A program made the position numbers and the translations under genes. A stretch of DNA of 64,000 nucleotides from an uncultured Veillonella sp. (GTDB lineage: Bacteria > Bacillota > Negativicutes > Veillonellales > Veillonellaceae). This document shows, in pieces, positions 13,903 to 63,819 of this stretch. The number at the start of each line of letters is the position of its first letter. Position 1 is the first letter of the stretch. The notes below the pieces were generated by a model, which saw only the letters and a list, made by a program, of their open reading frames with translations, made no database searches and was not told where the DNA came from. The stretch is taken from contig NZ_CAUQYW010000010.1 of the NCBI RefSeq assembly GCF_963522475.1, positions 471 to 64,470 of the forward strand. The letters are read 5' to 3'.

Positions 13903-14910
13903 TTAACAAATACGTGGGACTTGATCTTCGCCTAATAAATCTATTAATCGTACGCCACCAATAGCTGTTTGCAAACCAACCTTACCAATATTTTTATCTA
14001 ATGTTTTACCAATTAATACGGCTTCTTTTCCCTCTTCAAAGCTGTGAAGAATCTTTAGTACTTCCTCCGTTACAGAAGGATCGACAACCAATACAACTTT
14101 CCCTTCATTAGCTAAATATAAAGGATCATAGCCTAAAATATCACAAACAGATTGCACTTCAGCGTGAACTGGGATAGCACTTTCTTCAATCTTAATGCCT
14201 ACTTGGCTTTGATCTGCAATTTCTTTTAAAACAGTACCTAAACCACCTCGTGTAGGATCTCTCAGTAAAGCTATCTGAGGGCCCACTTTTTCGAGTACAG
14301 CATGTACCATATAATTTAATGGCGCACAGTCAGTTTTCAATGTATCAGATAATTCAAGGCCAAAACGTTGACCCATAACTGCAATAGAATGATCACCAAT
14401 AGCACCTGACAAGATAATATCCATCCCTGGCTTTACACGATGAGGACCAATATCTATATGTTCTGGAATCATACCAATTCCAGCTGTATTGATATAGATT
14501 TTATCAACTTCACCTTTTTTTACAACCTTGGTATCCCCTGTAACGATTTGAACATTAGCAGCTTTCGCCATATCCGCCATAGTATGGAGAATCTCATCTA
14601 ACTCATCAAAGGCTAGCCCTTCTTCTAAAATAAGGCCACAGCTTAAATACTGAGGTACAGCTCCATTCATCGCTAAATCATTAACTGTACCACATACAGC
14701 TAACTTGCCAATATTCCCGCCAGGGAAAAACGCTGGTTGCACTACATAGGAATCTGTAGAGAACGCCATCCGTCCTGTCATAACAGGAAATTGCGCACCA
14801 TCATGTAATGGAGCTAATAAATCATTTGTAAAGTATTTCAAAATAAAACGTTCGGTCAACTCATGACTAAATCGACCGCCATTTCCATGGACTAAGCGAA
14901 CTCGCTCCAT
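13903..14910 (-). CDS. hypE: Hydrogenase maturation carbamoyl dehydratase HypE
   Basis: HGNGG, FSTDSYVVQP.FFPGGNIGKLAVCGT, RDPTRGG and terminal PRIC; start ATG 14910. Confidence 0.96.
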   Translation of the reverse strand: MERVRLVHGNGGRFSHELTERFILKYFTNDLLAPLHDGAQFPVMTGRMAFSTDSYVVQPAFFPGGNIGKLAVCGTVNDLAMNGAVPQYLSCGLILEEGLAFDELDEILHTMADMAKAANVQIVTGDTKVVKKGEVDKIYINTAGIGMIPEHIDIGPHRVKPGMDIILSGAIGDHSIAVMGQRFGLELSDTLKTDCAPLNYMVHAVLEKVGPQIALLRDPTRGGLGTVLKEIADQSQVGIKIEESAIPVHAEVQSVCDILGYDPLYLANEGKVVLVVDPSVTEEVLKILHSFEEGKEAVLIGKTLDKNIGKVGLQTAIGGVRLIDLLGEDQVPRIC

Positions 14911-14911
14911 A

Positions 14912-16030
14912 TTAATCCTCCCACGTCGATCCACCACTGGAATACCCATATTTATACCATGCTGCACAACTACCTTCTACAGATACCATGCAAGCACCAA
15001 CTGGATGGTCAGCAGTACAACTTTTACCAAATAAGGGACATTCACTCGGCTTAATAAGACCTTGTAACACACGCCCACATTGACAACCTTTCGGATCAAT
15101 AGATGGTTTTTCTAATGTAATTGGTAAAGCCTTTTCTGCATCATATGCAGCATATTCATTCTTTAAGGCTAAACCAGAATTTGGGATAATACCAATTCCA
15201 CGCCATGCATCATCACATACGTCATACACTTCATTTATCATAGCTTGGGCTACAGGATTCCCCTGTTTCATAACTACAGAATGATAGGTATTACCTACAA
15301 ATATTTGGCCTGTCTTGCGCTGCTCTAAAATATTAGCTATAGCAGATAATATTTCTACCCCATCAAAGCCAGCAATACATGATGGAATATGATATTCTTC
15401 TGGCAAGAATCGATACGGTTCTTCACCGATGATAACGCTCACATGGCCAGGCAAGATAAAACCATCGATATGACCTTCTTGCTTATCTAGTAATGCCCGT
15501 AATGCAGGAGGCACTAATTTATGAGATACGAGGAAAAATACATTCTTAAGACCTGCAGCATGAACAGCTTTCACAGTCGCACAAATAACAGCAATAGTCG
15601 TTTCAAAACCTATGGCTAAGAATACAATTTTTTTATCTGGATGTTTTTTACTAAGCTCTATTACTTCTAATGGTGTATAGATAACATGGATATGAGCCCC
15701 TTTTGTTTGGGCCTCACTAAGACTACTATAACTGCCAGGAACCTTTAACATATCCCCGAAAGTAGCGATGATAACATCATCGCATTCAGCATAGGCTAAC
15801 GCCTTATCCATATACGTTTGATCTGTTACACATACAGGACATCCTGGTCCACTAACAAGTTCAATGCCACTTGGCAATAATTGACGAAGACCTTCTCGGA
15901 AAATCGATACAGTATGTGTACCACAAACCTCCATAAGTCTTATAGTTTCCCCAGGCTCATGAAGGGTATTAATACGTTTTAACAACGCATCAGCACTATT
16001 CTGCTTTTCCTGCAAAGTAAGCTTCTTCAA
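14912..16030 (-). CDS. hypD: Hydrogenase maturation protein HypD
   Basis: MEVCGTHT, GPGCPVCV, GFETT, PGHVS and C-terminal Cys cluster motifs; TTG start overlaps hypC. Confidence 0.96.
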   Translation of the reverse strand: MKKLTLQEKQNSADALLKRINTLHEPGETIRLMEVCGTHTVSIFREGLRQLLPSGIELVSGPGCPVCVTDQTYMDKALAYAECDDVIIATFGDMLKVPGSYSSLSEAQTKGAHIHVIYTPLEVIELSKKHPDKKIVFLAIGFETTIAVICATVKAVHAAGLKNVFFLVSHKLVPPALRALLDKQEGHIDGFILPGHVSVIIGEEPYRFLPEEYHIPSCIAGFDGVEILSAIANILEQRKTGQIFVGNTYHSVVMKQGNPVAQAMINEVYDVCDDAWRGIGIIPNSGLALKNEYAAYDAEKALPITLEKPSIDPKGCQCGRVLQGLIKPSECPLFGKSCTADHPVGACMVSVEGSCAAWYKYGYSSGGSTWED

Positions 16031-16241
16031 GTTCTTCTAGCTCCTTAAAGGCATCTAATGTTTTTTGTGCCTCTTCTTCATCAACAATTTGTACAGCAAA
16101 ACCTGCATGGACTAACAACCAGTCTCCTACCTTTGCTTCTGGTACGAGGAGTAAGCTACAATCACGAGTAGCACCTGTCAATTCGACAGTACCAATCGCA
16201 TCATTTACAGCAACCAATTGTGCTGGTACAGCTAAGCACAT
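15996..16241 (-). CDS. hypC: Hydrogenase assembly chaperone HypC
   Basis: MCLAVP N-terminus and GDWLLVHAGFA. Confidence 0.96.
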   Translation of the reverse strand: MCLAVPAQLVAVNDAIGTVELTGATRDCSLLLVPEAKVGDWLLVHAGFAVQIVDEEEAQKTLDAFKELEELEEAYFAGKAE

Positions 16242-16384
16242 ATTATCTCCTTTATCTATTAAATTAATAAGACTTATTTTATATAAAAGTGCTTTTCACA
16301 AAAGCATTATCAGAATATATAAATTATTCTAATATCATTGTATCACATTTAAAAATATTATTTAGTGATAGTAGCTACAAATTA

Positions 16385-18670
16385 TTATTTTGATATATGG
16401 CTACCAATCCATAGTTGACCTAGTGCCAATCCACCATCATTGGAAGGAACTGCTTCATTCATGTATAAATCACCTACATGCCAAGCTTTATACATTAGTT
16501 CTACTAATTTACGATTTTGAAATACACCACCAGATATAGCTACATTTCTAATGTTATATCGCTCCATTAAATCAGCAGCCGTTTCACATAATGCAATGGC
16601 AACGGTTTTATGGAATGATACTGCAAGATGAGATCTAGATTCACCTTTAACGACACCATCCATAATAGATTGAACAGTTGGAGTAAAATCAAGAATTCGC
16701 CCATCATAGTTATAATCAAGCAATGTGCCTTTTTCATCACCACATAAAGATTCTAATGCAATAGCAATTTGCGCATCATAGGTATGAATCATACCTAGTC
16801 CTAAAAGAGAACCTACTGCATCAAATAAACGTCCACAGCTCGTTGCTTGAATCATAGGCATTGTAGATTGTAATGCTTTATCTAATATTTCCCAACCTTT
16901 AGGTAGCCTGTTCATCCAATCTTGGTAAATAGGTGGAATATCATTACCATAATAATTTCTCATATACCATAAGGCTTGACGCCATGGCTCAGAAACCGCT
17001 TTTTCTCCACCTGGTAACGGCGCTTCATGGATATGGGCTAATCGTTGATATTGGTTGCCTTTACAAAGGAGAAATTCACCACCCCATACGCTTCCATCTG
17101 GACCATATCCAGTACCATCCATGGCAATACCTAGTACAGGGCCTTCAAGATTATGCTCTGCCATAACTGATGCAATGTGAGCATGATGATGTTGGACAGG
17201 TATAACAGAAATCTGTGAACTTTTACCAATACTTTCCCCTAAGTGAGAAGAGAAAAATTGAGGATGACTATCTACAATGATTTTCTCTGGTTGTATAGAA
17301 AATAATTTCTCATATCGGTCAATAGTCCACTCCAAAGTTGCATGAGTGGATGCATTCTGTAGATCACCAATATGTGGTCCCACAAGAACTTCAGAACCTT
17401 TATTCATAGCGAAAGCATTTTTTAAATCACTCCCCATGGCTAATATCGAAGTTTGCCCTGAAATTTCACAATGAATAGGTTCTGGTACATAGCCACGACT
17501 ACGACGAATAAATCGAGGTTTCTTATGAATAACAGTTACAACAGAATCATCGAGAGGTGCATAAATTTTCCGATTGTGGACCAAAAAATAATCAGCCACT
17601 GCCCCTAACTCTTCAAATGCTTGATTATCATCATATAAAACGGGATCACCACTGCGATTACCACTCGTCATGACCCACGCCGCATCTGATGGTAATAGTA
17701 CCTCATGCATTGGTGAATACGGTAACATTACGCCCAGCATATGATTATCTGGTGCCACATGGGGACTCAACCGTACCAAACTATCATGATTTCTTTGTAA
17801 TAGTACGATAGGACGCTCCATTCCGGTCAATGTATCTAATTCTACATCACTAATATGAACTAATTCTATGGCTGTATCTAGAGACCCTACCATAATTGCT
17901 AGTGGTTTATGTGGTCTATTTTTACGCTTACGTAAGCGTTGTACCGCTACATCATTTCGAGCATCACAAACTAAATGATAGCCGCCAATTCCCTTTATAG
18001 CGATAATACTACCTTCGTTAATTAATTCACGGGTTGTATTCCATACATTTACTGTATCTACAACCGTACGATTAGGTTTATATAAAGTATAATGAGGGCC
18101 ACATTCAATACATGCATTTGGTTCAGCACGATAACGGCGCCCCTCTATATCCTCATATTCAGCCTTACAAGCTTCACACATAGGAAACGCATCCATCGTC
18201 GTTCGCTCACGATCATAAGGTAGCGATTTAATAATCGTATACCGGGGGCCACAATTTGTGCAATTAATAAAAGGATATTCTTTCCTACGCTTGTCCTGCT
18301 CCAATTCTTTAAGACAGTCATCACATGGCGCTGTATCAGCACTAATAAACGTACTAACCTCTTCACCTAATGGAGAGGGCTTCACAGAGAACTCAACTTC
18401 ATTGTTTTGTATAGTAAGATGTTGTACCCGTTGACTTGTAATGCGGCACAATCGAGGTTGGTCATCTTGAATCGCATCTAAAAACAACTGCAAATCACTA
18501 GTACAACCTTGTATCTCAACGTAAACACCTTGGCTATCATTATATACAAAACCTGTTAACCCTAGGGAATGTGCCCACATAGAAACAAGGGGCCGGAATC
18601 CGACCCCTTGAACTATACCGGTATAACGAATTCCCCAGCGTTCTATAGTTTGATTACTATTTTGTTTCAT
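16385..18670 (-). CDS. hypF: Carbamoyltransferase HypF
   Basis: GIVQGVGFRP acylphosphatase domain, two CxxC..CxxC zinc fingers, KGIGGYHL, QHHHAH, DGTGYG and NDGG.ALGQ. Confidence 0.96.
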   Translation of the reverse strand: MKQNSNQTIERWGIRYTGIVQGVGFRPLVSMWAHSLGLTGFVYNDSQGVYVEIQGCTSDLQLFLDAIQDDQPRLCRITSQRVQHLTIQNNEVEFSVKPSPLGEEVSTFISADTAPCDDCLKELEQDKRRKEYPFINCTNCGPRYTIIKSLPYDRERTTMDAFPMCEACKAEYEDIEGRRYRAEPNACIECGPHYTLYKPNRTVVDTVNVWNTTRELINEGSIIAIKGIGGYHLVCDARNDVAVQRLRKRKNRPHKPLAIMVGSLDTAIELVHISDVELDTLTGMERPIVLLQRNHDSLVRLSPHVAPDNHMLGVMLPYSPMHEVLLPSDAAWVMTSGNRSGDPVLYDDNQAFEELGAVADYFLVHNRKIYAPLDDSVVTVIHKKPRFIRRSRGYVPEPIHCEISGQTSILAMGSDLKNAFAMNKGSEVLVGPHIGDLQNASTHATLEWTIDRYEKLFSIQPEKIIVDSHPQFFSSHLGESIGKSSQISVIPVQHHHAHIASVMAEHNLEGPVLGIAMDGTGYGPDGSVWGGEFLLCKGNQYQRLAHIHEAPLPGGEKAVSEPWRQALWYMRNYYGNDIPPIYQDWMNRLPKGWEILDKALQSTMPMIQATSCGRLFDAVGSLLGLGMIHTYDAQIAIALESLCGDEKGTLLDYNYDGRILDFTPTVQSIMDGVVKGESRSHLAVSFHKTVAIALCETAADLMERYNIRNVAISGGVFQNRKLVELMYKAWHVGDLYMNEAVPSNDGGLALGQLWIGSHISK

Positions 18671-18704
18671 ATAAACTCCTACTATAGACGGAGAATTAAA
18701 TCTA

Positions 18705-20114
18705 TTAACCTAATGCTACAGGAATACTGCCATCAATGCCAGCTTGTTCCAACTCAGCTTGAATCATAATAGCACATTCGATACGTTTCTTTTGTAAACG
18801 GCAGCCAAATTCATAAGGTGTTTCTAAATCGCCACCTAATGTAATGTTGTTAGCATGACAACCACCAGAACAGAAGAATTTCGCCCAACATTCAGCACAA
18901 GTTGGTTTAGAGAATACATGTGTATTACGGAAATCTTTAGGAATTTCTGTATTTTGTAAACCATCATACACATTGCCAAGCACATATCCATCTTTACCTA
19001 CGAATTGATGACAAGGGTAAATATCGCCATTTGGTACGACTGCCATATATTCATGACCTGCCCCACAACCACGAAGGCGTTTAGCCATACATGGACCGCG
19101 ATACAAATCCATACGGAAGTGGAAGAAGTTAAACTTCTCGCCCCAACCATCTAATTGACGTTGTAAATAAATATCTGCTAATTTTTCATATTCTTTTTCC
19201 AATACAGGCCAATCCTCTTCGCGAAGAACATAGTCCCCCTCTTCACCTACTACAGGCTCCATGGATAAATGTTCAAAGCCAAGATCAGACATAGCCATAA
19301 CGTCTTTTGTAAAGTCTAAGTTTTTATGTGTATACGTACCACGTACGTAGTATTCAAGGCCATGGCGTTGTTTTACAGCATTGATAAGATTTTTAGCAAT
19401 ATATTTGTAAGATTCAGCACCACTACCAGCTACAGGACGCATCGCATTATGTACAGATTCACGACCATCCAAAGATAATACAAGGCTCATCTTATGTTCG
19501 TTTACATAGTCGATTTTATCTTGTGTTAAGAGCATGCCGTTTGTAGTCAATGTAAGCTTGAAAATCTTATTGTGCTTTTCTTGAATGGATTCAATATATT
19601 CAACTGTTTGTTTAACAACATCCCAGTTCAATAAAGGTTCTCCACCAAAGAAGTCTATTTCACAATGTTGACGAGGGCCGCTCATTTTAATGAGGAAGTC
19701 CACTGCACGCTTCGCCACATCAAAACTCATTAATTCACGTTTTACACCGCCGTAATCACCTTGGCTAGCAAAACAGTATTTACATGCTAAATTACAATCA
19801 TGAGCAATATTTAAGCATAATGCCTTAACAATAGGTTTTTCACCTACTACAAGTTTAAACTCTGTACTCATGGGAGCAAACAATTGCTCTGCTTTAATGA
19901 GCTCATCTAACTCATCCATAATCTCATCAAGTTCTACGGCATCTTCTTTAGCATCTAATGCAGCATGTACTGCATCGCGATTAGTGCCATCATATATGTC
20001 AAGAACTCTATCAATGAGTTCGTCGATAACGTGAATAATACCACTATTAACATCTAAGCAGTAATAGTTATCCTTCATCCGAAACTTATGGATCATTGGT
20101 TTTAATTCTAACAT
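18705..20114 (-). CDS. scfB: SCIFF/ranthipeptide radical SAM maturase
   Basis: RRE-like N-terminus (LDVNSG.IH), CNLACKYC, FFGGEP and SPASM Cys motifs; adjacent precursor; start ATG 20114 after GGAGG. Confidence 0.94.
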   Translation of the reverse strand: MLELKPMIHKFRMKDNYYCLDVNSGIIHVIDELIDRVLDIYDGTNRDAVHAALDAKEDAVELDEIMDELDELIKAEQLFAPMSTEFKLVVGEKPIVKALCLNIAHDCNLACKYCFASQGDYGGVKRELMSFDVAKRAVDFLIKMSGPRQHCEIDFFGGEPLLNWDVVKQTVEYIESIQEKHNKIFKLTLTTNGMLLTQDKIDYVNEHKMSLVLSLDGRESVHNAMRPVAGSGAESYKYIAKNLINAVKQRHGLEYYVRGTYTHKNLDFTKDVMAMSDLGFEHLSMEPVVGEEGDYVLREEDWPVLEKEYEKLADIYLQRQLDGWGEKFNFFHFRMDLYRGPCMAKRLRGCGAGHEYMAVVPNGDIYPCHQFVGKDGYVLGNVYDGLQNTEIPKDFRNTHVFSKPTCAECWAKFFCSGGCHANNITLGGDLETPYEFGCRLQKKRIECAIMIQAELEQAGIDGSIPVALG

Positions 20115-20251
20115 GGTACCTCCAATTAATATGTATGGTAAAAGTTCTACTATATAGAACTTTCTAGATAATTGTACCACATTTCCACGCTAAACGTTAT
20201 GAAAAGAGTCATAAAGATATACCATACAAAGTATGTATTATACACATAAAT

Positions 20252-20279
20252 AAAAAAGGCCCGCTAAGCGAGCCTCTTT
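20252..20279 (-). terminator. Terminator after scfA
   Basis: Minus strand AGGCTCGC-TTA-GCGGGCCT-TTTTT. Confidence 0.75.
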
Positions 20280-20280
20280 A

Positions 20281-20424
20281 TTATTTTTGTTTGCAAACTT
20301 GGTTACCAACTGTGCAGCTTGTTTTGCAAGCAGATTGGCAAGATGTTTGACATTCCCCACAACCGCCAGTTTTAGCAGTTTTTTGCAAGGATTCAGTGTT
20401 GATAGTACGAATACGTTTAGCCAT
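20281..20424 (-). CDS. scfA: Six-cysteine ranthipeptide (SCIFF) precursor, 47 aa
   Basis: Translated by hand: MAKRIRTINTESLQKTAKTGGCGECQTSCQSACKTSCTVGNQVCKQK*; GAGGAGG RBS; not in ORF track. Confidence 0.96.
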   Translation of the reverse strand: MAKRIRTINTESLQKTAKTGGCGECQTSCQSACKTSCTVGNQVCKQK

Positions 20425-20491
20425 GGTTATCCTCCTCAATACTTATCGAATGATATTTATTTTATCATATTTATGAAAAGCCTGTAAAATA

Positions 20492-21332: not shown

Positions 21333-22175
21333 TTAAATACGTTCACGGCGTCGTGAAATAATACCACGCTCTACCAATGCACCTATAATCACTGCTACGC
21401 CTGTCATACCAGCTTCTAACAAAGTTGGAGTAACAAACACTAGTGGATTACCTTGATACGTTGGAAAAACGGTGGGAACTAAAGATAAAATAAACTCTGG
21501 AATATAACCACCATATAAAATATGGGCATTCATAGCGAGCCATAAACCAGCAGTTAAAACAATACGAAATAATCGTATACCTTTATAGGCTATTTCTCTT
21601 GGGTATAAATAGAATACAAATACCAATAAGGATATAAGTAATGATACTAATTCTGCAAAGAGTATATTTACATTCATAGATGACGCATACATGAAATAAA
21701 CCATTGGATCTTGTAGATCAATATATAGAAGTGAACCAATAAATAAGAATGGAATTGGAATAGTATATCCAATTATATCGAGCGCTTCATCTACCATTCC
21801 CCATCGATGATTTCGATTGAAAAACTTAGTAGCTAGCAATCCACAAAGTTCAATAAGTACTTGAACTATAAAATATACCACGAAGAGAAGCAACGCTGTT
21901 ACAATTCCATTATCTGTAGTAAAGCTAAATGGCGTATGAAGAAAAGAAAATACAGTCCACCAAGCCCAACTATATGCATGATATCCCATACTCAATGGTA
22001 GATCGTCATTAAATTTAGCATTCTTAAGTCTTCGTACCATAAGAGGTATTACGAGGGACAACACGGGGAATACTAAGATTGGTAAAGCTATCGCTCCACT
22101 CAAAGAAAGAACTGTCGTTACAGCACTTACAAATAATGCACAGACAACGGTAAATAACCAGAAATTCTTATTCAT
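21333..22175 (-). CDS. Hypothetical polytopic membrane protein
   Basis: About 8 hydrophobic segments; GGAGG RBS; overlaps the upstream gene by 8 nt. Confidence 0.75.
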   Translation of the reverse strand: MNKNFWLFTVVCALFVSAVTTVLSLSGAIALPILVFPVLSLVIPLMVRRLKNAKFNDDLPLSMGYHAYSWAWWTVFSFLHTPFSFTTDNGIVTALLLFVVYFIVQVLIELCGLLATKFFNRNHRWGMVDEALDIIGYTIPIPFLFIGSLLYIDLQDPMVYFMYASSMNVNILFAELVSLLISLLVFVFYLYPREIAYKGIRLFRIVLTAGLWLAMNAHILYGGYIPEFILSLVPTVFPTYQGNPLVFVTPTLLEAGMTGVAVIIGALVERGIISRRRERI

Positions 22176-22572
22176 TACGGCCTCCTACTAAACGAGTAAG
22201 ACCATATGCCAAAACCAAGCTAATAGTAACGCCAATATACATAGCTACTAAAAAAGCTACATCTCGACCAACTGTTGGCCAGCTCCATAACATGGATAAA
22301 TCTATACCGAGAAAAATACCTTTATAGCTAATACCGTGGATTATAATCCAACTTATAACATAGGCAATACGGCTAATCGATTTACCATCGTCAAAAGTAC
22401 TACTTTTAAACGATAAATATGCCCAAGGCATTATTAACGATAAGAGCAAATACCATACAAGTGCGACTGTCGCACTCGATCCATTATGAATCATATACGC
22501 AATAATAGGAATTACTACGATAAATATATTCAAGTAAATGGATTTTTTACAAATATCTATTAATGTGTTCAT
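22168..22572 (-). CDS. Hypothetical membrane protein (about 4 TM)
   Basis: Hydrophobic ORF with AGGAG RBS. Confidence 0.72.
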   Translation of the reverse strand: MNTLIDICKKSIYLNIFIVVIPIIAYMIHNGSSATVALVWYLLLSLIMPWAYLSFKSSTFDDGKSISRIAYVISWIIIHGISYKGIFLGIDLSMLWSWPTVGRDVAFLVAMYIGVTISLVLAYGLTRLVGGRNE

Positions 22573-22640
22573 AAAGATCTCCTATGATATGTAATCTCTT
22601 TGTATTTTACAATAATCATAGATAAATGTCATCAAAAAAG

Positions 22641-22685
22641 AAAAACCTCCATATAGGTAAATAAATACCTTATATGGAGGTTTTT
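22641..22685 (-). terminator. Terminator after the P1B-ATPase
   Basis: AAAAACCTCCATATA...TATATGGAGGTTTTT inverted repeat. Confidence 0.8.
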
Positions 22686-22687
22686 AA

Positions 22688-24826
22688 TTAAGCTACTACA
22701 GAGTCAGCTGTTACATCAATTGTAGGAACAGTTTCCTTTTGTTCTTCTTTCTTCAACAATGGAGTCATGCTTTCTAAGCCGATCCCCAATGTGAATAGAT
22801 TATGCAACCATGCTGTTTGGCTCGGCGGCATAATACCGAGTACGCCACCACCTACAAGAGCACCGTTGAAACCAACGATACCATTGTAATTTGCTTTGAT
22901 GCGTTTCATCAATGCCATAGAAATGCGGCGTAAATCTACAAGAGCTTGTAGATGGTCGGAAGAAATAGTAACATTTGCAATTTTTTGAGCAATCGGAGCG
23001 CCTTCATTCATAGCGATACCAACATGTGCTTCGGAAATTGCTGGGGAGTCATTAATACCATCCCCTACCATCATTACTGTATAGCCTTCTGCTTTTGCTT
23101 GTTTTACATAAGCGGCTTTATCTTCTGGCAATACTTCAGCATGTAATTCATCAATACCAAGTTCGTCAGCTACACGTTGTGCATTACGTTTGGAGTCACC
23201 AGTCATCATGACAACCTTTTTAATACCCAAAGTGTGTAAATCAGCTATAACTTGTTTTGCTTCCTCTCGAACAGGGTCTTTAATACAAATAACCGCTGCT
23301 AATGTACCTCCAATAGCGAGGTAAATATGTGAGGATGTATTTGGTAAATTGTTGAATTTTTCTTGTTCATCTGCAGGAATTTTTGTCTTTTCATCATCAA
23401 AGATGTAGTGAGCACTACCAATGCGTACACGATAGCGACCAACTTTAGATGCAATACCATGAGCTACAACGTATTCTACATCGGAGTGCATTTCCTTGTG
23501 AGGCAATGCATGATCCTTAGCAGCGCGTACAATTGCTTTTGCCATGGAGTGAGGGAAATGTTCCTCAATACATGCAGCTAATTTTAACATTTCATCTGCA
23601 TCATGACCGTTGAACGGGATGATTTGTTCAAACTCAGGTTCTGCTTTTGTAAGAGTACCAGTTTTATCGAACACAATCATATCTGCTTGAGCTATTTGTT
23701 CTAAGAACTTACCACCTTTAACAGTGATACCGCGTTTAGATGCTTCTTGCATAGCGGAAAGTACTGCCAATGGAATGGATAATTTTAGAGCACAAGAGAA
23801 GTCAACCATAACGAAAGACAATGCTTTCATCACATTTCGAGTCAACAAATATGTTAAACCAGCACCAATAAAGCTAATTGGAACTAATTTATCTGCCATG
23901 CGGTATGCTTGTTGTTCCATACCAGATTTCATTTGTTCAGACTCTTCAATAAGGTTAACAATTTTTTCGTAACGAGATGTTTTAGATGTACTGCGAACTT
24001 CTACAATAGCTTTACCGTCTTCTACAACAGTACCAGCATATACAGAAGTATCTTTATCGCGGCGAACCGCTTCAGGTTCACCAGTCATGGAGCTTTCATT
24101 AACAAGAACAACTCCATCGATAACGATGCCATCCAATGGAATCACTTCACCTTGACGAATAATGATTTTATCGCCTGCTACAACTTCGTTAACTGGCTTG
24201 CTCACTTCGATATCGTCAACTAATACCCATACTTTATCTACATTCAAAGACATGCTTTGAGCAAGATTCAATACGGATTTACGGTGAGTCCATTCTTCTA
24301 AGATATCGCCAATCCCTAATAGATACATAACAGCACCAGCTGTAGGGTAGTCTTTTTGAAGTAAAGCAGCACCAATAGCTACACCATCAAGTACTTCAAC
24401 AGTTAACTTACGTTGCCACAATGTTTTAATCGCTTTACCGATAAATTTAATACCGTCAAACCAAGCCCATGCAGCCGCAATCGGTGCAGGAAGCACTGCT
24501 TTTTTACCTAGGTAAAGTGCAGTACGGTTGATCATCATTTCACGGTATTTTTTATTTACCAAGCGAGGAGAATATTCGTTTAAAGCAGGAGCTTCGGACA
24601 AATCTAAATCGCGTAGAGCTAACACTGCATCACGCACAGCATCAGAATCGCCATTATGTTTAATGGCGATTTGACTGCTACGAGTGTAGAAGGTTACATC
24701 TACAATTGCATCATTAAGTAGTAATGTATCCTCTACATAAGCTGCTTCAGCCTCTGTAAAGCGATGACCAGTTACCTTAACATGCAAGCGATTTCTGAGT
24801 TTTCGTACAACAGAAAATTGTAACAT
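22688..24826 (-). CDS. Heavy-metal P1B-6-type ATPase (FezB-like)
   Basis: TGE, DKTGT and GDGIND; membrane DFSCA in place of CPC and HNLFT (HNxxT); N-terminal HMA-like domain without CxxC. Confidence 0.9.
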   Translation of the reverse strand: MLQFSVVRKLRNRLHVKVTGHRFTEAEAAYVEDTLLLNDAIVDVTFYTRSSQIAIKHNGDSDAVRDAVLALRDLDLSEAPALNEYSPRLVNKKYREMMINRTALYLGKKAVLPAPIAAAWAWFDGIKFIGKAIKTLWQRKLTVEVLDGVAIGAALLQKDYPTAGAVMYLLGIGDILEEWTHRKSVLNLAQSMSLNVDKVWVLVDDIEVSKPVNEVVAGDKIIIRQGEVIPLDGIVIDGVVLVNESSMTGEPEAVRRDKDTSVYAGTVVEDGKAIVEVRSTSKTSRYEKIVNLIEESEQMKSGMEQQAYRMADKLVPISFIGAGLTYLLTRNVMKALSFVMVDFSCALKLSIPLAVLSAMQEASKRGITVKGGKFLEQIAQADMIVFDKTGTLTKAEPEFEQIIPFNGHDADEMLKLAACIEEHFPHSMAKAIVRAAKDHALPHKEMHSDVEYVVAHGIASKVGRYRVRIGSAHYIFDDEKTKIPADEQEKFNNLPNTSSHIYLAIGGTLAAVICIKDPVREEAKQVIADLHTLGIKKVVMMTGDSKRNAQRVADELGIDELHAEVLPEDKAAYVKQAKAEGYTVMMVGDGINDSPAISEAHVGIAMNEGAPIAQKIANVTISSDHLQALVDLRRISMALMKRIKANYNGIVGFNGALVGGGVLGIMPPSQTAWLHNLFTLGIGLESMTPLLKKEEQKETVPTIDVTADSVVA

Positions 24827-24841
24827 AATTAAATCCTTCTA

Positions 24842-25102
24842 TTATTTGTTTTCTTCAAAGATTTCTTCGTTGCGTGCTTCGTTGATTTCTTGAGCTTCTG
24901 CCAATACATCAGATGCGGATGCTTGTACTTTTTCAGCTGTTTCTAATACAGTTTCTTTAGCGCGAAGACCAGCTGCTACGATACCAGCATATACTTTTTT
25001 TGCGTCTTTGGAAGTTAACACTTTAAGACCTACAGTACCCAATGCAAGACCTGCTGCGAATAAGTTAGCGTTTTTAAGATTGTTTTGGTTGAAATTGAAC
25101 AT
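24842..25102 (-). CDS. Small membrane protein, DUF6110/FezA-like
   Basis: LFAAGLALGTVGLKVLTSKDAKKVY..IVAAGLRAKE...DVLAEA; GXXXG helix plus acidic coiled tail; 15 nt upstream of the ATPase. Confidence 0.82.
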   Translation of the reverse strand: MFNFNQNNLKNANLFAAGLALGTVGLKVLTSKDAKKVYAGIVAAGLRAKETVLETAEKVQASASDVLAEAQEINEARNEEIFEENK

Positions 25103-25208
25103 GATAATATCCCTTTCTACTAAATATAATAAAAAATGTAATTACAATATATGAAAAGAGGAGCTCATTATAGAGACTCCTCTTTCATTACTAGTAACTC
25201 GTATCAGC

Positions 25209-25415
25209 TTAATGATCAGTACGTTTAATACCTAGCGCCTTGTTCGAACCATCACAGCTGCAGTTACCACCACAACCAGAAGATTTTTTGGAATTAGATG
25301 CAGAGCCACCACCGCCACAACCGCAGCCACCCTTACCAGACACTTGTTTATAAATTTTTGTACCAAGATAAGCCAATGCTAATATCACTATAAGTCCTAT
25401 AATTAAGGTATCCAT
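25209..25415 (-). CDS. FeoB-associated Cys-rich membrane protein
   Basis: Single TM, then KGGCGCGGGG...GCGGNCSC; start ATG 25415 after AGAAGG. Confidence 0.8.
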   Translation of the reverse strand: MDTLIIGLIVILALAYLGTKIYKQVSGKGGCGCGGGGSASNSKKSSGCGGNCSCDGSNKALGIKRTDH

Positions 25416-25463
25416 TATAATTCCTTCTTTCTCAATATCCACCAAATTTCCATAAATTGATAT

Positions 25464-25539
25464 ATGATAAATGAGTTAAAAGCAATATATTTGGACATTT
25501 CCCTTTTCTCATTATCATTTAACCACAAACAATGATAAT
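25464..25539. promoter_or_regulatory. Fur-like operator elements
   Basis: ATTATCATT-N11-AATGATAAT perfect inverted repeat at 25511-25539; ATGATAAATGAG at 25464-25475. Confidence 0.5.
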
Positions 25540-25646
25540 TGGCAAGAATTATTTTAAATTTTTCTATAATTTAATTACATTATGTCAATACAATTTAGTT
25601 CTAGGTATCTAAGGAATGTAAATCTTAGTGATTAGCTACGCTTTAA

Positions 25647-28016
25647 TTAGAATCCTAGTGCCAAACCGATATTGTAGAAAATAAAGCATGCAATCCATGC
25701 AAAAGCATTTTCATAACAGAACATGAATAGCATCCATTTCCAAGATCCAGTTTCACGTTTAATAACAGCAAGTGCTGCTACACATGGTGGATAACACAAG
25801 ATGAATAACATTAATGTTAATGCAATCAATGGTGTATAGTGTGGATCATTTTGTAAATATGCAGCCAATGCTTGAGGATGAACAGAATCACCACCTACTG
25901 CATAAATTGTACCCAATGTAGATACAACAACTTCTTTAGCTGCTAACCCGGCTACTAATGCTACACCCATTTTCCAATCAAAGCCCAATGGTTGAAGAAT
26001 TGGATTAATTGCTTTACCAAACATAGCTGCATAAGATTGTTCGATTTTTTCAGATGCTTGTTCTTGATCAAGTTTTTGATTTTCATCAGCTAAGTTAGCT
26101 TGGTTTTTATACATAGACCAAGCTACTGGGAACAATTGTTCATTTTGTTCTTTAATATCATTGAATAATTCAGGAGCTTCAGAATCATCTTCCGTTTCAA
26201 TTACGGGATCATCTTCACCATTAGCTTCTGCTGCTGAAGTAGCATCATCTACAGTAGATTTCATATTATCAACGATTTCATTAACTTGATCTTTTTGTTC
26301 ATCTGTAGTAATACCAAATTGTTCTAATGTTTGAGCATCTTTTACTTCATAGGTAGCGGCTACTTGATCATGTAATTCATCATAATCTTGAGAGTATTGT
26401 ACATCATTAGGATACGATGTAATAAACCAAATAAGGATAGTAGCAGCCAAAATAAATGTAGACGCTTTTTTGAAGTACATAATAGTACGTTCATACATAT
26501 GTGTTGCAGTTGCTTTCAAGGTAGGCATATGATATGGAGGTAATTCCATAACAAACGGTTCTGCTTCGCCAGAGAACAAGAATTTGCGGAATATTTTAGC
26601 AAATATAATGCCCAAAATAATTCCTGCGAAGTAAATACAAAATAAAACAATACCAGCCATTTCCGGATTAAAGAATGCAGCAGCAAACAAAGTATATACA
26701 GGTAAGCGTGCTGAGCAACTCATAAATGGAGTAATTAAAATCGTTACCATACGATCTTTATAGTTATCCAGAATACGAGCACCCATAACAGATGGCACAG
26801 AACAGCCAAATCCTAGTAATAAAGGGATAAACGATTTACCATGCAAACCAAACGCGCGCATAACACGGTCAATAACAAAAGCGGCACGAGCCATATAACC
26901 AGTATCTTCCAAGAAGGATATCCCTAGAAATAGTAGTAAAATTAGTGGAATAAAAGACATAACAGCCCCTACACCAGCTATAATACCATCAGATACCAAA
27001 GATTGAAGTTGACCCTCAGGAATATATGTAGTCGCTAATCCTTGGAACCATGTAAATAAGTCTACTAGCCAACCTTGCGGAACCGCTCCTACTATATTAA
27101 CAACATAAAATAATATAAACATAACCAACAAGAATATTGGCAAGCCCCAGATAGGATGTGTTAGCACTTTATCTAATCGATCAGAACGAGTTTCAGTAGA
27201 TGCTGGATATTCTACAGTAATGGCATTAAATACTTCTACTGCAAAACGGTGACGATATTCTTGGAATACTAGATCAAGATCAACTTGATCTTTAACTTCT
27301 TCACGAATGGCTTTTGCCTTTTCCAAAGCAGCCTCTGTATTTTCAAGACGCATAATCTTGCCGACCACATCAGCATCTTTTTCCAATAATTTAACAGCAA
27401 CCCAACGAATTGGATATGCTATGGATCCTGCTTTTACTAATTCTGCTTCTAATTCAGCAATTTTAGGTTCCAAAATGTCACCATAAGGAATAATAACACC
27501 CGGTTTTTTATTTTCCTTAGCACATTGAACAGTAGCTGCTAATAGCTCTTTTGTACCTATATTATTACGACCAACTGTGCGAACAACGGTAGCACCAGTC
27601 ATTTTTTCCATCAACGGAATATCGTATTTAAAGCCCATATCATCAGCAACATCAGCCATATTTAGAGCAATAACCATTGGCACTTCGAGTTCAATCAATT
27701 GTGCAGCCAAGTATAAGTTACGTTCTAGATTAGATGCATCGAGCACGTTCACGATAAGATCTGGTTTATCATTAATGATAACATTACGTGCTACTAATTC
27801 ATCCAAAGAACGTGCAGTTAAGCTATATGTACCTGGTAAATCTATAAACAATAATTCTTGGCCGTCAAATTTTGTATGGCCTTCTTTTTTTTCTACAGTA
27901 ACACCTGAATAGTTACCGACATGTTGCTTAGCCCCTGTGATATTGTTAAACATTGTAGTTTTACCACAGTTAGGGTTACCTGCTAGGGCTATGCGAATTT
28001 GCTCATTATCTGCCAT
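25647..28016 (-). CDS. feoB: Ferrous iron transporter B
   Basis: GNPNCGKT, NYSGVTVE, DLPGTYSL, NMAD, EDTGYMAR, GFGCSVP, PFMSCSARLPVY and FVMELPPY. Confidence 0.97.
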   Translation of the reverse strand: MADNEQIRIALAGNPNCGKTTMFNNITGAKQHVGNYSGVTVEKKEGHTKFDGQELLFIDLPGTYSLTARSLDELVARNVIINDKPDLIVNVLDASNLERNLYLAAQLIELEVPMVIALNMADVADDMGFKYDIPLMEKMTGATVVRTVGRNNIGTKELLAATVQCAKENKKPGVIIPYGDILEPKIAELEAELVKAGSIAYPIRWVAVKLLEKDADVVGKIMRLENTEAALEKAKAIREEVKDQVDLDLVFQEYRHRFAVEVFNAITVEYPASTETRSDRLDKVLTHPIWGLPIFLLVMFILFYVVNIVGAVPQGWLVDLFTWFQGLATTYIPEGQLQSLVSDGIIAGVGAVMSFIPLILLLFLGISFLEDTGYMARAAFVIDRVMRAFGLHGKSFIPLLLGFGCSVPSVMGARILDNYKDRMVTILITPFMSCSARLPVYTLFAAAFFNPEMAGIVLFCIYFAGIILGIIFAKIFRKFLFSGEAEPFVMELPPYHMPTLKATATHMYERTIMYFKKASTFILAATILIWFITSYPNDVQYSQDYDELHDQVAATYEVKDAQTLEQFGITTDEQKDQVNEIVDNMKSTVDDATSAAEANGEDDPVIETEDDSEAPELFNDIKEQNEQLFPVAWSMYKNQANLADENQKLDQEQASEKIEQSYAAMFGKAINPILQPLGFDWKMGVALVAGLAAKEVVVSTLGTIYAVGGDSVHPQALAAYLQNDPHYTPLIALTLMLFILCYPPCVAALAVIKRETGSWKWMLFMFCYENAFAWIACFIFYNIGLALGF

Positions 28017-28025
28017 GAGGACCTC

Positions 28026-28259
28026 CTATTCAACTTCTACATCAATCATATCCGCTTCACTTGTACGAAGCGCTAATTCAAAGTTTTTTACCTTGATTTC
28101 CACAGGATCACCTAATGGAGCAAACTTCATGACATGAACCTTAGTACCATGTACCAGTCCCATATCAACTAAGCGATGTTTTATATTACCGCTACCATGA
28201 AGGGTTGCAATAATGCCGGACTCGCCTTGTTTCATGTCTTTTAACTTTTTAATAGCCAT
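28026..28259 (-). CDS. feoA: Ferrous iron transport protein A
   Basis: RLVDMGLV.GT.V.V...APLGDPVEI.V....LALR.SEA; start ATG 28259 after AGGAGG. Confidence 0.94.
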   Translation of the reverse strand: MAIKKLKDMKQGESGIIATLHGSGNIKHRLVDMGLVHGTKVHVMKFAPLGDPVEIKVKNFELALRTSEADMIDVEVE

Positions 28260-28337
28260 ACGACACCTCCTAATTATTGTACCTAACAACCTCATATTAA
28301 CCACACCAAATAATAATGCGTATTAATATCTTAAGTT

Positions 28338-28377
28338 ATTATATCAAAACAATCATTAATTTCAACAATTATTATCA
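28338..28377 (-). promoter_or_regulatory. feoAB promoter with overlapping Fur box
   Basis: Minus strand TTGAAA-16-TATAAT (TG-extended); TGATAAT-A-ATTGTTG at 28363-28377 overlaps the -35. Confidence 0.6.
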
Positions 28378-28532
28378 TTTTTATGGTAAATTTCTACCAC
28401 ATATTTATATTTTTTTCTCATAATAAAAATGAAAATTGTTACTTTATCTCTCTACATAAACCTTATAGGGTATAGTATTTTTTATTCACACCACTACATA
28501 AAAAATTCCATCCAAAATAAGAACTACTACTA

Positions 28533-28573
28533 AGATAATCATTATTGATAATTTAATCATTCTCATTTATCAT
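28533..28573. promoter_or_regulatory. Further Fur-like boxes
   Basis: AGATAAT-C-ATTATTG (7-1-7) at 28533-28547; CTCATTTATCAT at 28562-28573. Confidence 0.5.
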
Positions 28574-28743
28574 TTTAAATTTTGTTTAAATACAAATATT
28601 TTAATGCTTTTCATTCTCATATACTTTTGTTTATTTCGTTATTTTCCAATATATTATCATTTAAATATACAAATATACCCTTTCTTTATTACAACTTAAT
28701 TCATCATTTAATAATCATCACTGTAAATAACATTTCATTTTAT

Positions 28744-42322: not shown

Positions 42323-44440
42323 TTATTTGCTCATCTTAAACATTGGTTGCAAACGCTCAATTACGGTCATTGATTCTTTATGTTCTTGTGCAATAGCGGC
42401 TTTCATAAATTCCTCTTGAGCAGAAATTGGATGTTCTCTATCATTAATTTTACGGTATGAACCATCTACTCTCATAATATGAGCCTTTAGGGTATCCTCT
42501 AAATACAAATCTAAAATCCCCTTAATTCTCTCCTTATGTCGTTTATCTTCAATAGGAATCATAAGTTCTACACGTTCATTTAAATTTCGTGGCATCCAGT
42601 CTGCACTAGATAAAAATAAACTTTCATTTCCTCCATTACGGAAATAGAATAACCGATGATGTTCTAGAAATCGCCCTACTACAGAGCGAACTGTTATATT
42701 GTCGCTGATACCTTCAATTCCAGGCCGTAGTGTACAAATACCACGAACGATAAGATCAATACGAACGCCTGCAGCAGAGGCTTCATAGAGTTTAGCAATA
42801 ACCTCTTTATCGAGTAATGAATTCATTTTACCAATGATATATGCCTCTTCTCCCTGTTTAGCAAATTCTATTTCACGGTTAATTAATTCCATTATTTTTT
42901 CCCGCAAATTTAAAGGAGCTACAATAAATTTATTCCAAATCGGAGGATCGGAATAGCCAGAGATTAAATTAAAGAAACGAGATGCATCATCACCATATTC
43001 ATCATTACACGTAAAAATACCACAATCAGTATACATTCGAGCCGTCTTACCATTATAGTTACCTGTAGCTAAATGAACATAGCGTCTAATACCTGCATCT
43101 TCCCTACGAACAACCATAGTAATTTTAGAATGAGTTTTAAGCCCTTTTAATCCATAAATTACATGACAACCAGCCTTTTCTAGACGACGAGCCATATGAA
43201 TATTATTTTCTTCATCAAAGCGAGCTTTAACCTCCATAAGTACGGTTACTTGCTTACCATTATCGGCCGCTTTTATAAGAGATGCAATAATAGGTGAATC
43301 ACCACTAACTCGATACAATGTTTGTTTAATAGCTAATACATCTGGGTCTGTAGCGGCTTGTGCTATAAATTGTTCTACTACTGTAAAAGACTCAAAAGGA
43401 TGATGAACAAATAAATCTTGCTTTCCAATAACAGAGAATAAACTCTCCCCTTCATGATCTACTAATTCACTAGGAAGTTTAGGTTCAAATAAGACATAAC
43501 GAAGATGATCAAGGCCTGGATAATTACAAAAATCAAAATACATACGACAATCAAGATGACCATCTATACGGTATACATCCTTTGACTCTAATTCAACACT
43601 AGTAAGTATAAAGTCTAATAAATTGTCCTTTATATCACCGCACACTTCTAATCGTACTGCATCACCACGACGTCGACGACGTAAAGATGCTTCTACCTCA
43701 GAAAGCAAATCTGTTGCTTCTTCTTCATCAATTTCTAGATCTGCATCACGAGTGATACGGAACACCATAAAATCTTCAATACCATAACCTTGGAAAAATT
43801 GAGTAGCATAATATGTAATCACGTCTTCTAAATATACAAAACGATGTTCTTTATTGCTATGACTCGGTATTTCGATTATACGATTTAATACAGAAGGAAT
43901 TGGTAAAATTGCGATTTTATAATCTTTTGTACCATCTGGTAATACTTGAAAAATGCGTACAATTGCATTGATAGTATGATTTGTTAAAAAAGGGAATGGA
44001 TGACCAGAGTCAACAGCTAAAGGTGTTACAACTGGATAAATGTGTTCTTCAAAATAGTGCCGTAACCAAGCCTTTGATTTTACATCTAACTGATCGGGAT
44101 ATGTAAAATAAAATCCATACGACTCGAGCTCAGACAATACATTTTTAAGATACATACTTTGCATCGATACAAGGCGCTGTACAGACTCATCAATAGCCTT
44201 TAACTGTGCTTTAGCATCCATATGAGCTGCATCATACTTTACAATACCATTGACAACTTGATGACGTAAGCCAGCTACACGAATCATAAAAAACTCATCT
44301 AAATTTGAGCTAGCAATAGCTATAAATCGAAGGCGTTCTAATAAAGGAGTGTTTGTATCAATAGACTCTAATAGAACGCGCTGATTAAATTTTAACCAAG
44401 ACAATTCTCGGTTAAAATAATACTTTGCATTATTAAACAC
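42323..44440 (-). CDS. ppk1: Polyphosphate kinase 1
   Basis: NRELSWL.FN.RV, NLDEFFMIRVAG, HHPFES, ARFDEENN, KTHSK and SSADWMPRN. Confidence 0.96.
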   Translation of the reverse strand: MFNNAKYYFNRELSWLKFNQRVLLESIDTNTPLLERLRFIAIASSNLDEFFMIRVAGLRHQVVNGIVKYDAAHMDAKAQLKAIDESVQRLVSMQSMYLKNVLSELESYGFYFTYPDQLDVKSKAWLRHYFEEHIYPVVTPLAVDSGHPFPFLTNHTINAIVRIFQVLPDGTKDYKIAILPIPSVLNRIIEIPSHSNKEHRFVYLEDVITYYATQFFQGYGIEDFMVFRITRDADLEIDEEEATDLLSEVEASLRRRRRGDAVRLEVCGDIKDNLLDFILTSVELESKDVYRIDGHLDCRMYFDFCNYPGLDHLRYVLFEPKLPSELVDHEGESLFSVIGKQDLFVHHPFESFTVVEQFIAQAATDPDVLAIKQTLYRVSGDSPIIASLIKAADNGKQVTVLMEVKARFDEENNIHMARRLEKAGCHVIYGLKGLKTHSKITMVVRREDAGIRRYVHLATGNYNGKTARMYTDCGIFTCNDEYGDDASRFFNLISGYSDPPIWNKFIVAPLNLREKIMELINREIEFAKQGEEAYIIGKMNSLLDKEVIAKLYEASAAGVRIDLIVRGICTLRPGIEGISDNITVRSVVGRFLEHHRLFYFRNGGNESLFLSSADWMPRNLNERVELMIPIEDKRHKERIKGILDLYLEDTLKAHIMRVDGSYRKINDREHPISAQEEFMKAAIAQEHKESMTVIERLQPMFKMSK

Positions 44441-45995
44441 GACGATTCCCTCCCCTTACTAGTACGATTTCCATACCAAACACTTCTGTAAAGTATTCTG
44501 AATCACGGTCAAAAGTCCACCATTCTAACGAAATATCTTCATTAGTTCGACAGAATACATATAGTACATTATCTCGCTCTTCAAATGTAACTTCAGAAAT
44601 TTTTTGATTACTACCCGCATCAAGTGCACAAGCAACACGAATGATAGCTACTAGCTTGGTAACTTGAATTTTTTGTAATTCAGTTAATCCATTAAAATAG
44701 GCATCATCATCATTTGGTGTTCCCTTGTAATGGTAATAAACAACATTGGCAACCACTTGTTTTTCTTCTTCTGTAAGGCCCAATATATCGGTCCCCATTA
44801 CAATATGATACGCATGCTCTCCATGATTTCGTAAATTAACGAACTTACCGACAGAGCATAGAATAGCTGCTATACGACATAAATATCCCCACCGTTCTGG
44901 TAAGCCTTTATGTCGTAATACTTTACAGAATAAAGAGCTAAATCGTTCTACCTCCGCATCATGAATTCTATCTGTATGATATCTGGCTGCAATAGCACGT
45001 GCTAACTGTGCATTCTGTTCTCGCAATTGATACATAAATGGATTATTTTCAGCTTCTACACCATAGAACCAACTAATACCTTGAGAGAATGAAAAGCTAC
45101 TAAAAATTAATGCTTTAGGCTCTATAGCAGTAATAATTTCATTAAACAAAATCATGGTAGGCATTAAAATATTTGCCTTATATTCAGGTAATTTATAACG
45201 ATTCATCAGCTTTGTAGCTGTTACTCCATCAAAGGAATTGATAAGACTTTTAAATCGTGTAGGCTCAATAGTAATAATGTCTTCTTTATTATTCTCTTGC
45301 CCCATTAAATGAGCCATATATCGTGCCTCATCACCAGATAATACAATACTATCAATATTAAAAGTTTGTAATTCTTCACGGAGCGGTCCAATCATACGAT
45401 GTAAGTACTCCGTAATAGCCCTAGGGAATGATATAGAGGACCGTTGATTTCGATTAAATGACTCCATAACACGTAAAGAACCACTATGCATATTGCGTTG
45501 AAACAACAAGTTTTCACCACGCCAAACTGTTAATCCTACCCCTCCAGATGTTATATCTAAGAATAATGTTGCCTTTGTAGGATCCGTTAGTTGATATTGA
45601 TGAGTCATCTTGTAGTATAGCAAAGCATATTTATAATATACCTCTTTCGGCATATCGATAACCTCAACGCGCATTCCCGTTTGAATATAAATTTGATCTA
45701 AAATGCTACGACGATTAACGGCTTCGCGTATTACTGTTGTGCCATATAGCCTAGAACGGCTCACACCATAGTCTGCCATTAATTGTTTGTATCCTTTTAA
45801 AATATGGCAGATTTCTTCAATTGTTTTAAAACTCAACCTAGAGGTTTGAAATAATTCCTCTCCAAAAGTTACTTCTCTTGCTGCATAATCGATAACACGC
45901 ACATCGTCTATGCCTTTATACTCTAAAATAGTAATGCTCATGCTACTAGAGCCCACGTGTAGCACTGCATATCGTAATGTTTTTGGTAATGTCAT
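44433..45995 (-). CDS. Ppx/GppA-family protein with degenerate motifs
   Basis: Ppx-length ASKHA plus HD-like architecture, but HVGSSS, DITSGGVG and LCSVGK replace DLGSNS, DLGGASTE and LHDIGK. Confidence 0.78.
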   Translation of the reverse strand: MTLPKTLRYAVLHVGSSSMSITILEYKGIDDVRVIDYAAREVTFGEELFQTSRLSFKTIEEICHILKGYKQLMADYGVSRSRLYGTTVIREAVNRRSILDQIYIQTGMRVEVIDMPKEVYYKYALLYYKMTHQYQLTDPTKATLFLDITSGGVGLTVWRGENLLFQRNMHSGSLRVMESFNRNQRSSISFPRAITEYLHRMIGPLREELQTFNIDSIVLSGDEARYMAHLMGQENNKEDIITIEPTRFKSLINSFDGVTATKLMNRYKLPEYKANILMPTMILFNEIITAIEPKALIFSSFSFSQGISWFYGVEAENNPFMYQLREQNAQLARAIAARYHTDRIHDAEVERFSSLFCKVLRHKGLPERWGYLCRIAAILCSVGKFVNLRNHGEHAYHIVMGTDILGLTEEEKQVVANVVYYHYKGTPNDDDAYFNGLTELQKIQVTKLVAIIRVACALDAGSNQKISEVTFEERDNVLYVFCRTNEDISLEWWTFDRDSEYFTEVFGMEIVLVRGGNRRV

Positions 45996-62486: not shown

Positions 62487-62514
62487 ATGATTCCTTCCTA
62501 ATATAATAAGTTCA

Positions 62515-63669: not shown

Positions 63670-63819
63670 AGTAACTACCACTTTCTAAATTATAAATATA
63701 AATACGGAATGTCATAAATAAAAACTATTTAATTAAATCAATTATATCATTTCATTTCGAAAATAATCAATAAACTAATGATGAAGCACGCTGATTAGAT
63801 ACATAAAGATTATAATAAC

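Follow-up and report, generated by a model that had tools for sequence, protein, structure and literature searches.

Ferrosomes were first shown in proteobacteria, and the main text of that work defines the FezB pump by the motifs D[Y/F]SCA and HNxxT with an N-terminal RxR, reports GxxxG proteins in nearly all clusters, and places fez clusters near feoA, feoB, and Fur (10.1101/2020.01.10.902569). A FezC-type R-rich/HMA accessory protein is present in the Desulfovibrio magneticus and Shewanella types (10.1101/2020.01.10.902569). In Clostridioides difficile, FezA and FezB are needed for ferrosomes and are repressed by Fur, according to a 2025 review that also asks whether commensals have ferrosomes (PMC12574912); vesicle formation and iron release are described as an open question (PMC13463818). 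Here we analyzed a stretch of 64,000 nucleotides (nt) from an uncultured Veillonella sp. (contig NZ_CAUQYW010000010.1 of assembly GCF_963522475.1), referred to below as the window, in which a gene pair resembling fezAB lies behind feoAB. We suggest that this is a fezAB pair of the C. difficile type, which is fixed behind feoAB across the Veillonellaceae and probably builds ferrosomes. By analogy with C. difficile, D. magneticus, Shewanella putrefaciens, and Rhodopseudomonas palustris, iron would be the substrate of the pump, and the pair would form vesicles with a storage role.

The pump gene (22688-24826, reverse strand) is an open reading frame (ORF) of 712 residues, identified as a fezB-like P1B-6 ATPase by its motifs, its identity to the C. 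difficile-type pump of locus L163, and its position in a tree. DFSCA occupies residues 342-346 (23789-23803) and HNLFT, in the last helix, residues 675-679 (22790-22804), both of which fit the P1B-6/FezB signature, and DKTGT lies at 23654-23668. An earlier note made from the sequence alone had reported these three motifs correctly, and its assignment of the pump to subclass P1B-6 agrees with both the SCA and HNxxT motifs and the tree placement. CPC is absent, with SCA instead, and a CxxC metal-binding domain is also absent. The pump has only three Cys residues (345, 419, and 514), none of them in the N-terminal domain, which carries R11-N-R13-L-H15 and with it the RxR motif (24788-24796); RxR is not retained in every relative. 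The earlier note had further described this domain as Cys-free, containing Arg and His, and HMA-like. The first two points hold (RNRLH), but the fold is supported only indirectly: residues 1-100 gave no match to HMA models, the C. difficile-type orthologue matches HMA_2 below the cut-off (E 5e-6), and the predicted structure of a homologue (L064; mean predicted local distance difference test score 72) has a beta-beta-alpha-beta-beta-alpha N-terminal domain. The pump scores 477.7 bits against NCBIfam TIGR01525 and passes the cut-off of the broad TIGR01512 model (355.6 versus 313.5 bits), which explains the names "Cd-exporting" and "copper-transporting" on its homologues; the named homologues, which share 73-93% identity, come from Veillonella. 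A sequence search for a solved P1B-6 structure found none, the best matches being CopA, a Cd-type pump, and ZntA (E 1e-62 to 1e-65).

An ORF for an 86-residue membrane protein (24842-25102, reverse strand), which we consider fezA-like, ends 15 nt upstream of the pump gene. Its profile search, suggested earlier as a check, gave a clear match to Pfam DUF6110 (PF19605; 87.8 bits, E 5e-25, cut-off 26), and it is the only DUF6110 gene in the assembly. The GxxxG motif (GLALG, 25037-25051) and the acidic tail described in the earlier note were both borne out: G18, G22, and G25 are invariant in 11/11 aligned rows, and the last 38 residues contain 11 Asp/Glu versus 4 Lys/Arg. The pump is thus adjoined by a small hydrophobic GxxxG protein, as expected of a fez cluster. 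A prediction of the complex of the two proteins scored 0.24 against a mark of 0.32 and was counted neither for nor against the pairing. The same small protein could instead act as a PacL-type platform that stabilizes and clusters the pump in the cytoplasmic membrane, so that surplus Fe(II) or another divalent metal would be exported and no organelle would be formed. The protein shows a weak match to DUF1490, the PacL family (E 0.0015), and its tail is PacL-like in being 42% Ala+Glu. However, the DUF1490 match (19 bits) falls below the cut-off of 28.4, and the protein has no His and no Cys, hence no His-rich metal motif. PacL-Ctp systems combine a CPC pump, such as CtpC, with a His-rich motif in at least one PacL, whereas here an SCA pump stands with a sole DUF6110 protein lacking His.

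A short motif search returned three loci from a metagenome collection, including L163. In L163, a 131-residue protein, which by eye cannot be told apart from Q189E0 of C. difficile 630 as listed in the PMC9374683 supplement, is followed by a 699-residue pump. The window pump is 46.9% identical to the L163 pump over 695 aligned residues and the DUF6110 protein 42.9% identical to its counterpart over 70 residues; when the L163 pump was searched against this genome, the window gene was the best match (618 bits versus 213 for the next). Judged by sequence, the locus pair is orthologous to the C. difficile-type pair. In L162 (5355-7455), the C. difficile-type pump gene is divided into two ORFs, by an assembly error or a real frameshift, and it is whole in L163.

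A tree of 43 hand-picked rows (including 9 of 80 named loci and 6 of 20 Veillonellaceae loci) was built with a quick IQ-TREE search, in which support was given by the Shimodaira-Hasegawa-like approximate likelihood ratio test (SH-aLRT) only. The 33 SCA-type rows, including the window and L163, form one side of the tree (SH-aLRT 99), and the window and L163 pumps fall within a 24-row Firmicute subclade (SH-aLRT 99). The phylogeny proposed in the earlier note therefore groups the pump with the C. difficile-type pump, apart from Cu and Zn/Cd exporters. The two CPC pumps of this genome group with SilP (81) and with CadA (97), showing that it has distinct Cu-type and Zn/Cd-type exporters. The window pump has neither the CPC motif nor the grouping with CopA, SilP, or CadA that would mark a Cu+ (P1B-1) or Zn/Cd (P1B-2) exporter. 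The presence of these separate CPC exporters also argues against export through a PacL-type platform, as does the fact that the closest characterized system, that of C. difficile, forms ferrosomes under Fur repression (PMC12574912).

As the earlier note had stated, feoAB is upstream of the pair: feoA (28026-28259; 77 residues; Pfam PF04023, 73 bits) and feoB (25647-28016; 789 residues; TIGR00437, 601.7 bits; single copy in the assembly) are both on the reverse strand. A Cys-rich membrane peptide of 68 residues with five Cys (25209-25415, reverse strand) follows feoB. The note had placed it upstream of the pair; the peptide is present there, but it belongs to Pfam PF12669 (FeoB_associated; 27.8 bits, cut-off 27) and is therefore assigned to Feo, not Fez. 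The pump was found in 78/81 Veillonellaceae genomes and in 69/69 of those at least 90% complete. In all 20 loci examined out of the 78, which were picked to span genera, the order is feoA-feoB-DUF6110-pump, and the FeoB-associated peptide was found in 19 of them and at a looser threshold in the 20th. In a sample of the class Negativicutes, 21 of 151 genomes had a pump match with an E value no higher than 1e-95, namely 14 Veillonellaceae, 4/24 genomes of family f17 (one being Acidaminococcus), and 3/26 of family f12. A phylum-wide search, with two candidates scored per genome, found at least 15/401. The best 80 named relatives are mainly Clostridia of the gut (47-55% identity). In these, DUF6110 is directly upstream of the pump in 72/73 loci whose flank is long enough and feoB is close by in 10/40 full-flank loci, indicating that the pair is common in gut Firmicutes and its feo link recurrent. 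Among the families whose loci were examined, the feo linkage is fixed only in Veillonellaceae.

That the pair invariably comes last in the feo unit of this family might suggest that it is an accessory of Feo, helping to supply iron to periplasmic or membrane enzymes rather than storing it. We regard this as very improbable, because feo is missing beside the pair in the four family f17 loci examined (two of which are truncated at a contig end), L163, and 30/40 full-flank Clostridia loci, and no characterized P1B-6 pump was found to do so.

Other fez-type arrangements were also seen. Three loci of Negativicutes family f12 (L055-L057; genomes G197, G211, and G181) carry a second, distant type, whose DFSCG/HNTAT pump is 35-36% identical and branches apart from the Veillonella type in the tree; upstream of the pump are genes for a small protein with a GxxxG motif and for an R-rich protein resembling FezC, and feoAB comes next after the pump in L056 and L057. 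A Deinococcus plasmid (L074, NC_019790.1) has DUF6110 and pump genes adjoining an IS4 transposase, and an Arcobacter plasmid (L076, CP134847.1) has a multi-gene fez-type cluster with DUF2202.

The earlier note had reported Fur-like sites upstream of the pair. Using a 19-bp Fur-box consensus, we found four sites of 14/19 each (28312-28330, 28364-28382, 28528-28546, and 28600-28618) in the 545-nt region before feoA, a region that feoA has in common with a divergent DEAD-box helicase gene; the shuffled mean was 0.21, and 0/200 shuffles scored as high. The site at 28364-28382 overlaps the -35 element of the best promoter-like site (28365-28338). Sites above chance thus lie before feoA, but the interval between feoB and the peptide is at chance level (best 12/19, none of 13/19 or more), and the region before the fezA-like gene also lacks good sites. 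Single sites of 14/19 are not rare, with 72 among 403,303 non-coding positions, and with a 15-bp Fur consensus single loci could not be separated from shuffles. Across the 20 Veillonellaceae loci, which are kin and not independent, the best score before feoA exceeded the shuffled mean in 19 (13.8 versus 12.2), and scores were at chance level before the peptide (11.95 versus 11.82) and before fezA (11.30 versus 11.22). The genome encodes a Fur-like regulator (183 bits against a cut-off of 220 for the Bacillota Fur model) and also a PerR-like one; the PerR binding site is similar to that of Fur. The interval between feoB and the peptide (25416-25646) is motif-rich, with repeated GATAATGAGAA-like half-sites that are kept in close relatives; its Fur-box score is that of chance, and it may bind Fur or another regulator. 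The strongest Fur-like cluster of the genome (G000:C3:51030-51086; up to 16/19) lies before a gene for a 218-residue ABC-type-ATPase-like protein, a candidate member of the Fur regulon.

Two terminator-like hairpins frame the pair on the reverse strand. One with a short U-run (25153-25186; -20.5 kcal/mol, z score -5.36), which the earlier note had overlooked, lies about 50 nt before the DUF6110 start, and a strong one with a U-run (22634-22685; -25.8 kcal/mol, z score -5.73) closes the unit after the pump. The hairpins before fezA in 18/20 Veillonellaceae loci have energies of -15.9 to -29.4 kcal/mol versus shuffled means of -7.3 to -12.9 (12 shuffles each) and are built from unrelated sequences in different genera; L035 has none, and that of L048 is weak. 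Rfam models gave no riboswitch or other family over the region and no match for the hairpin before fezA. A simple promoter scan was at chance (30 versus 30.0), and neither hairpin was picked up by its terminator rule; no conserved promoter was seen by eye after the hairpin before fezA. Considering the short U-run and this lack of a conserved promoter, the terminator is likely leaky and would allow read-through. Direct control of fezAB by Fur does not follow from these data: the Fur-like sites are located upstream of feoA, and a conserved hairpin stands between the feo genes and fezAB. RNA runs cover small shares of the window (0.13 for the runs on record as RNA).

Several points weigh against a ferrosome role. 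No Fur-like site of 13/19 or more precedes the fezA-like gene (best 11/19), and a strong hairpin parts fezAB from the feo genes in 18/20 Veillonellaceae loci. A FezC-type partner is absent from the ORFs of the locus; a genome search with HMA_2 found no such protein either, but the controls also gave no match. We equate Q189E0 and Q189D2 with FezA and FezB by inference from reviews, which describe FezA as a membrane protein and FezB as a P1B6-ATPase (PMC13463818, PMC12574912). The tree has no bootstrap, and the FezB proteins of D. magneticus, S. putrefaciens, and R. palustris, CtpC, and FezH are not among its rows. The last-helix motif is HNx[F/Y]T in 20/20 Veillonellaceae loci versus HNxST in 79/80 Clostridia loci (one unreadable), and the His of the usual N-terminal HExRGRxR motif is replaced in the Veillonellaceae pump; judged by sequence, the aromatic residue or the changed N-terminal motif could alter the metal or the activity. 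Finally, platform assembly has been proposed for pairs of DUF6110 proteins and P1B6 pumps (PMC9374683, PMC13043812). The hairpin could uncouple fezAB from the feoA promoter, which would favor such a platform, but an exporter placed behind a starvation-induced importer would be hard to rationalize, and we consider the platform explanation unlikely.

The motif changes could also mean that the same vesicle machinery has diverged in its metal, with Mn, Co, or Ni replacing or joining iron, or that it makes small invaginations of the membrane in which no mineral is stored. This would be in line with the family-wide occurrence of the changes and with the long stem branch of the Veillonellaceae pumps (0.65 changes per column), and it has been considered in view of the hydrogenase maturation genes hypF/C/D/E 4-9 kb downstream, hypF being nearby in 13/20 loci. 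However, D342, S344, C345, A346, K348, N654, H675, N676, and T679 (alignment numbering) are invariant in 11 aligned pump rows, among them the C. difficile type, the link to feo is tighter than in the Clostridia, and the hyp genes are parted from the pair by a terminator and unrelated genes. Such divergence therefore seems improbable to us. The hyp genes belong to a stretch of the window (13903-20427, reverse strand) that encodes a SCIFF ranthipeptide and its radical S-adenosylmethionine maturase, then hypF, hypC, hypD, and hypE, all ordinary.

We therefore return to a ferrosome-building pair as the preferred interpretation. When iron is scarce, the feoA promoter would be freed from Fur and Feo would bring in Fe(II). 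Through the DUF6110 protein, the P1B-6 pump would become concentrated in membrane vesicles, which would likely fill with iron phosphate. If fezAB is reached by read-through of the leaky terminator, as the sequence suggests, its expression would be at a lower level than that of Feo. The window also contains a polyphosphate kinase 1 gene and two exopolyphosphatase-like genes (42323-47542, reverse strand); polyphosphate granules could be mistaken for ferrosomes in transmission electron microscopy.

Other iron stores of the genome were also searched for. There is one ferritin-family gene, whose best NCBIfam matches are Dps models below the cut-off, and one rubrerythrin; encapsulin gave no match in the genome. 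Among 40 relatives, the high-scoring ferritin class (at least 114 bits) is present in 1/15 genomes of the same genus, 11/11 of g2, 13/13 of g4, and 0/1 of g3, and the two members checked have non-heme ferritin as the best match, below the cut-off. Since fezAB is retained both with and without ferritin, this pattern is only circumstantial. It may be speculated, with considerable doubt, that the ferrosome is the main iron store of Veillonella, with fezAB as core genes of the family, ferritin mostly lost in the genus, one Fur-controlled promoter with a leaky terminator fixing the ratio of import to storage, and a family-specific variant of the pump metal site. If so, an abundant human commensal would be the simplest system in which to study a two-gene organelle tied to its importer.

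Two membrane-protein genes follow the pump on the reverse strand (22168-22572, 134 residues; 21333-22175, 280 residues), the latter in 20/20 and the former in 19/20 Veillonellaceae loci. We rejected them as additional fez genes, as they match no Pfam or NCBIfam model, are separated from the pump by the strong terminator, and occur in 0/80 Clostridia loci; the 280-residue protein belongs to no named Atlas family. Farther away, two NhaA-family antiporter genes stand in tandem (61314-63681, reverse strand).

The earlier note had expected annotation to give only an ATPase and a hypothetical protein; in fact, RefSeq-style annotation of other records already uses the DUF6110 name. It had also presented a ferrosome locus in this lineage as a surprise. 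A search of titles and abstracts, with subscription papers mostly outside it, found no paper on ferrosomes, iron granules, Fur, or feoB in Veillonella, but the pair was already tabulated and both the feo linkage and ferrosomes in diderms were known. The proteobacteria with the first-shown ferrosomes are themselves diderm. Supplementary Data 1 of PMC9374683 lists DUF6110 with a neighboring 1B6 pump in four Veillonella (V. montpellierensis, V. criceti, V. sp. oral taxon 780, and V. sp. AS16), two Acidaminococcus, and C. difficile 630. The Veillonella and Acidaminococcus pairs were not tested there, and the main text of that paper does not mention ferrosomes (0 matches). The main text of 10.1101/2020.01.10.902569 does not name Veillonella, Negativicutes, or Firmicutes, and its supplementary 304 FezB homologues may include Veillonella.

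On this interpretation, Veillonella, which is common in the mouth and gut, probably uses ferrosomes to store iron. Its two genes are core and single-copy, and the genus has little ferritin to fall back on; the phenotype of a deletion should thus be clean, and V. parvula is genetically tractable. Such a test case would decide between the two published views of DUF6110 proteins, as organelle builders and as PacL-like efflux scaffolds.

The closest known system is that of C. difficile FezA and FezB (Pi et al. 2023, known via PMC12574912, PMC13463818, and 10.64898/2026.06.16.732667), in which a DUF6110 gene is likewise directly before a DFSCA/HNxxT pump. The C. difficile-type locus L163 shares with that of Veillonella the identities given above, a reciprocal best match, and the same subclade. 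However, the L163 pair is isolated, and a Fur-like site of 15/19 lies some 600 nt before it, whereas the Veillonella pair stands behind feoAB and the peptide with a hairpin between, and the small protein has 86 residues in Veillonella versus 131 in L163, with the motif HNLFT versus HNAST. The fezABC genes of D. magneticus and the six-gene fez operons of S. putrefaciens and R. palustris share the P1B-6 signature, RxR, a GxxxG partner, and nearby feoA, feoB, or Fur, as described in the main text of 10.1101/2020.01.10.902569, but the Veillonella locus has no FezC, FezD-H, or DUF2202 gene. The pumps of similar multi-gene clusters of Azospirillum, Arcobacter, and Vibrio are 37-38% identical and branch apart. 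Mycobacterial PacL1-CtpC (PMC9374683, PMC13043812) is similar in having a small single-helix, Ala/Glu-rich protein directly before an HN-motif P1B pump, with a distant relation through DUF1490; it differs in its CPC, DUF1490, and His-rich metal motif, as opposed to the SCA, DUF6110, lack of a His motif, and iron-uptake context in Veillonella. The DUF6110 protein of V. sp. AS16 in the PMC9374683 supplement is, by eye, nearly identical to that of the window. Compared with these systems, the fezAB-type locus of Veillonella is real and conserved, and it adds no new kind of system to those already described.

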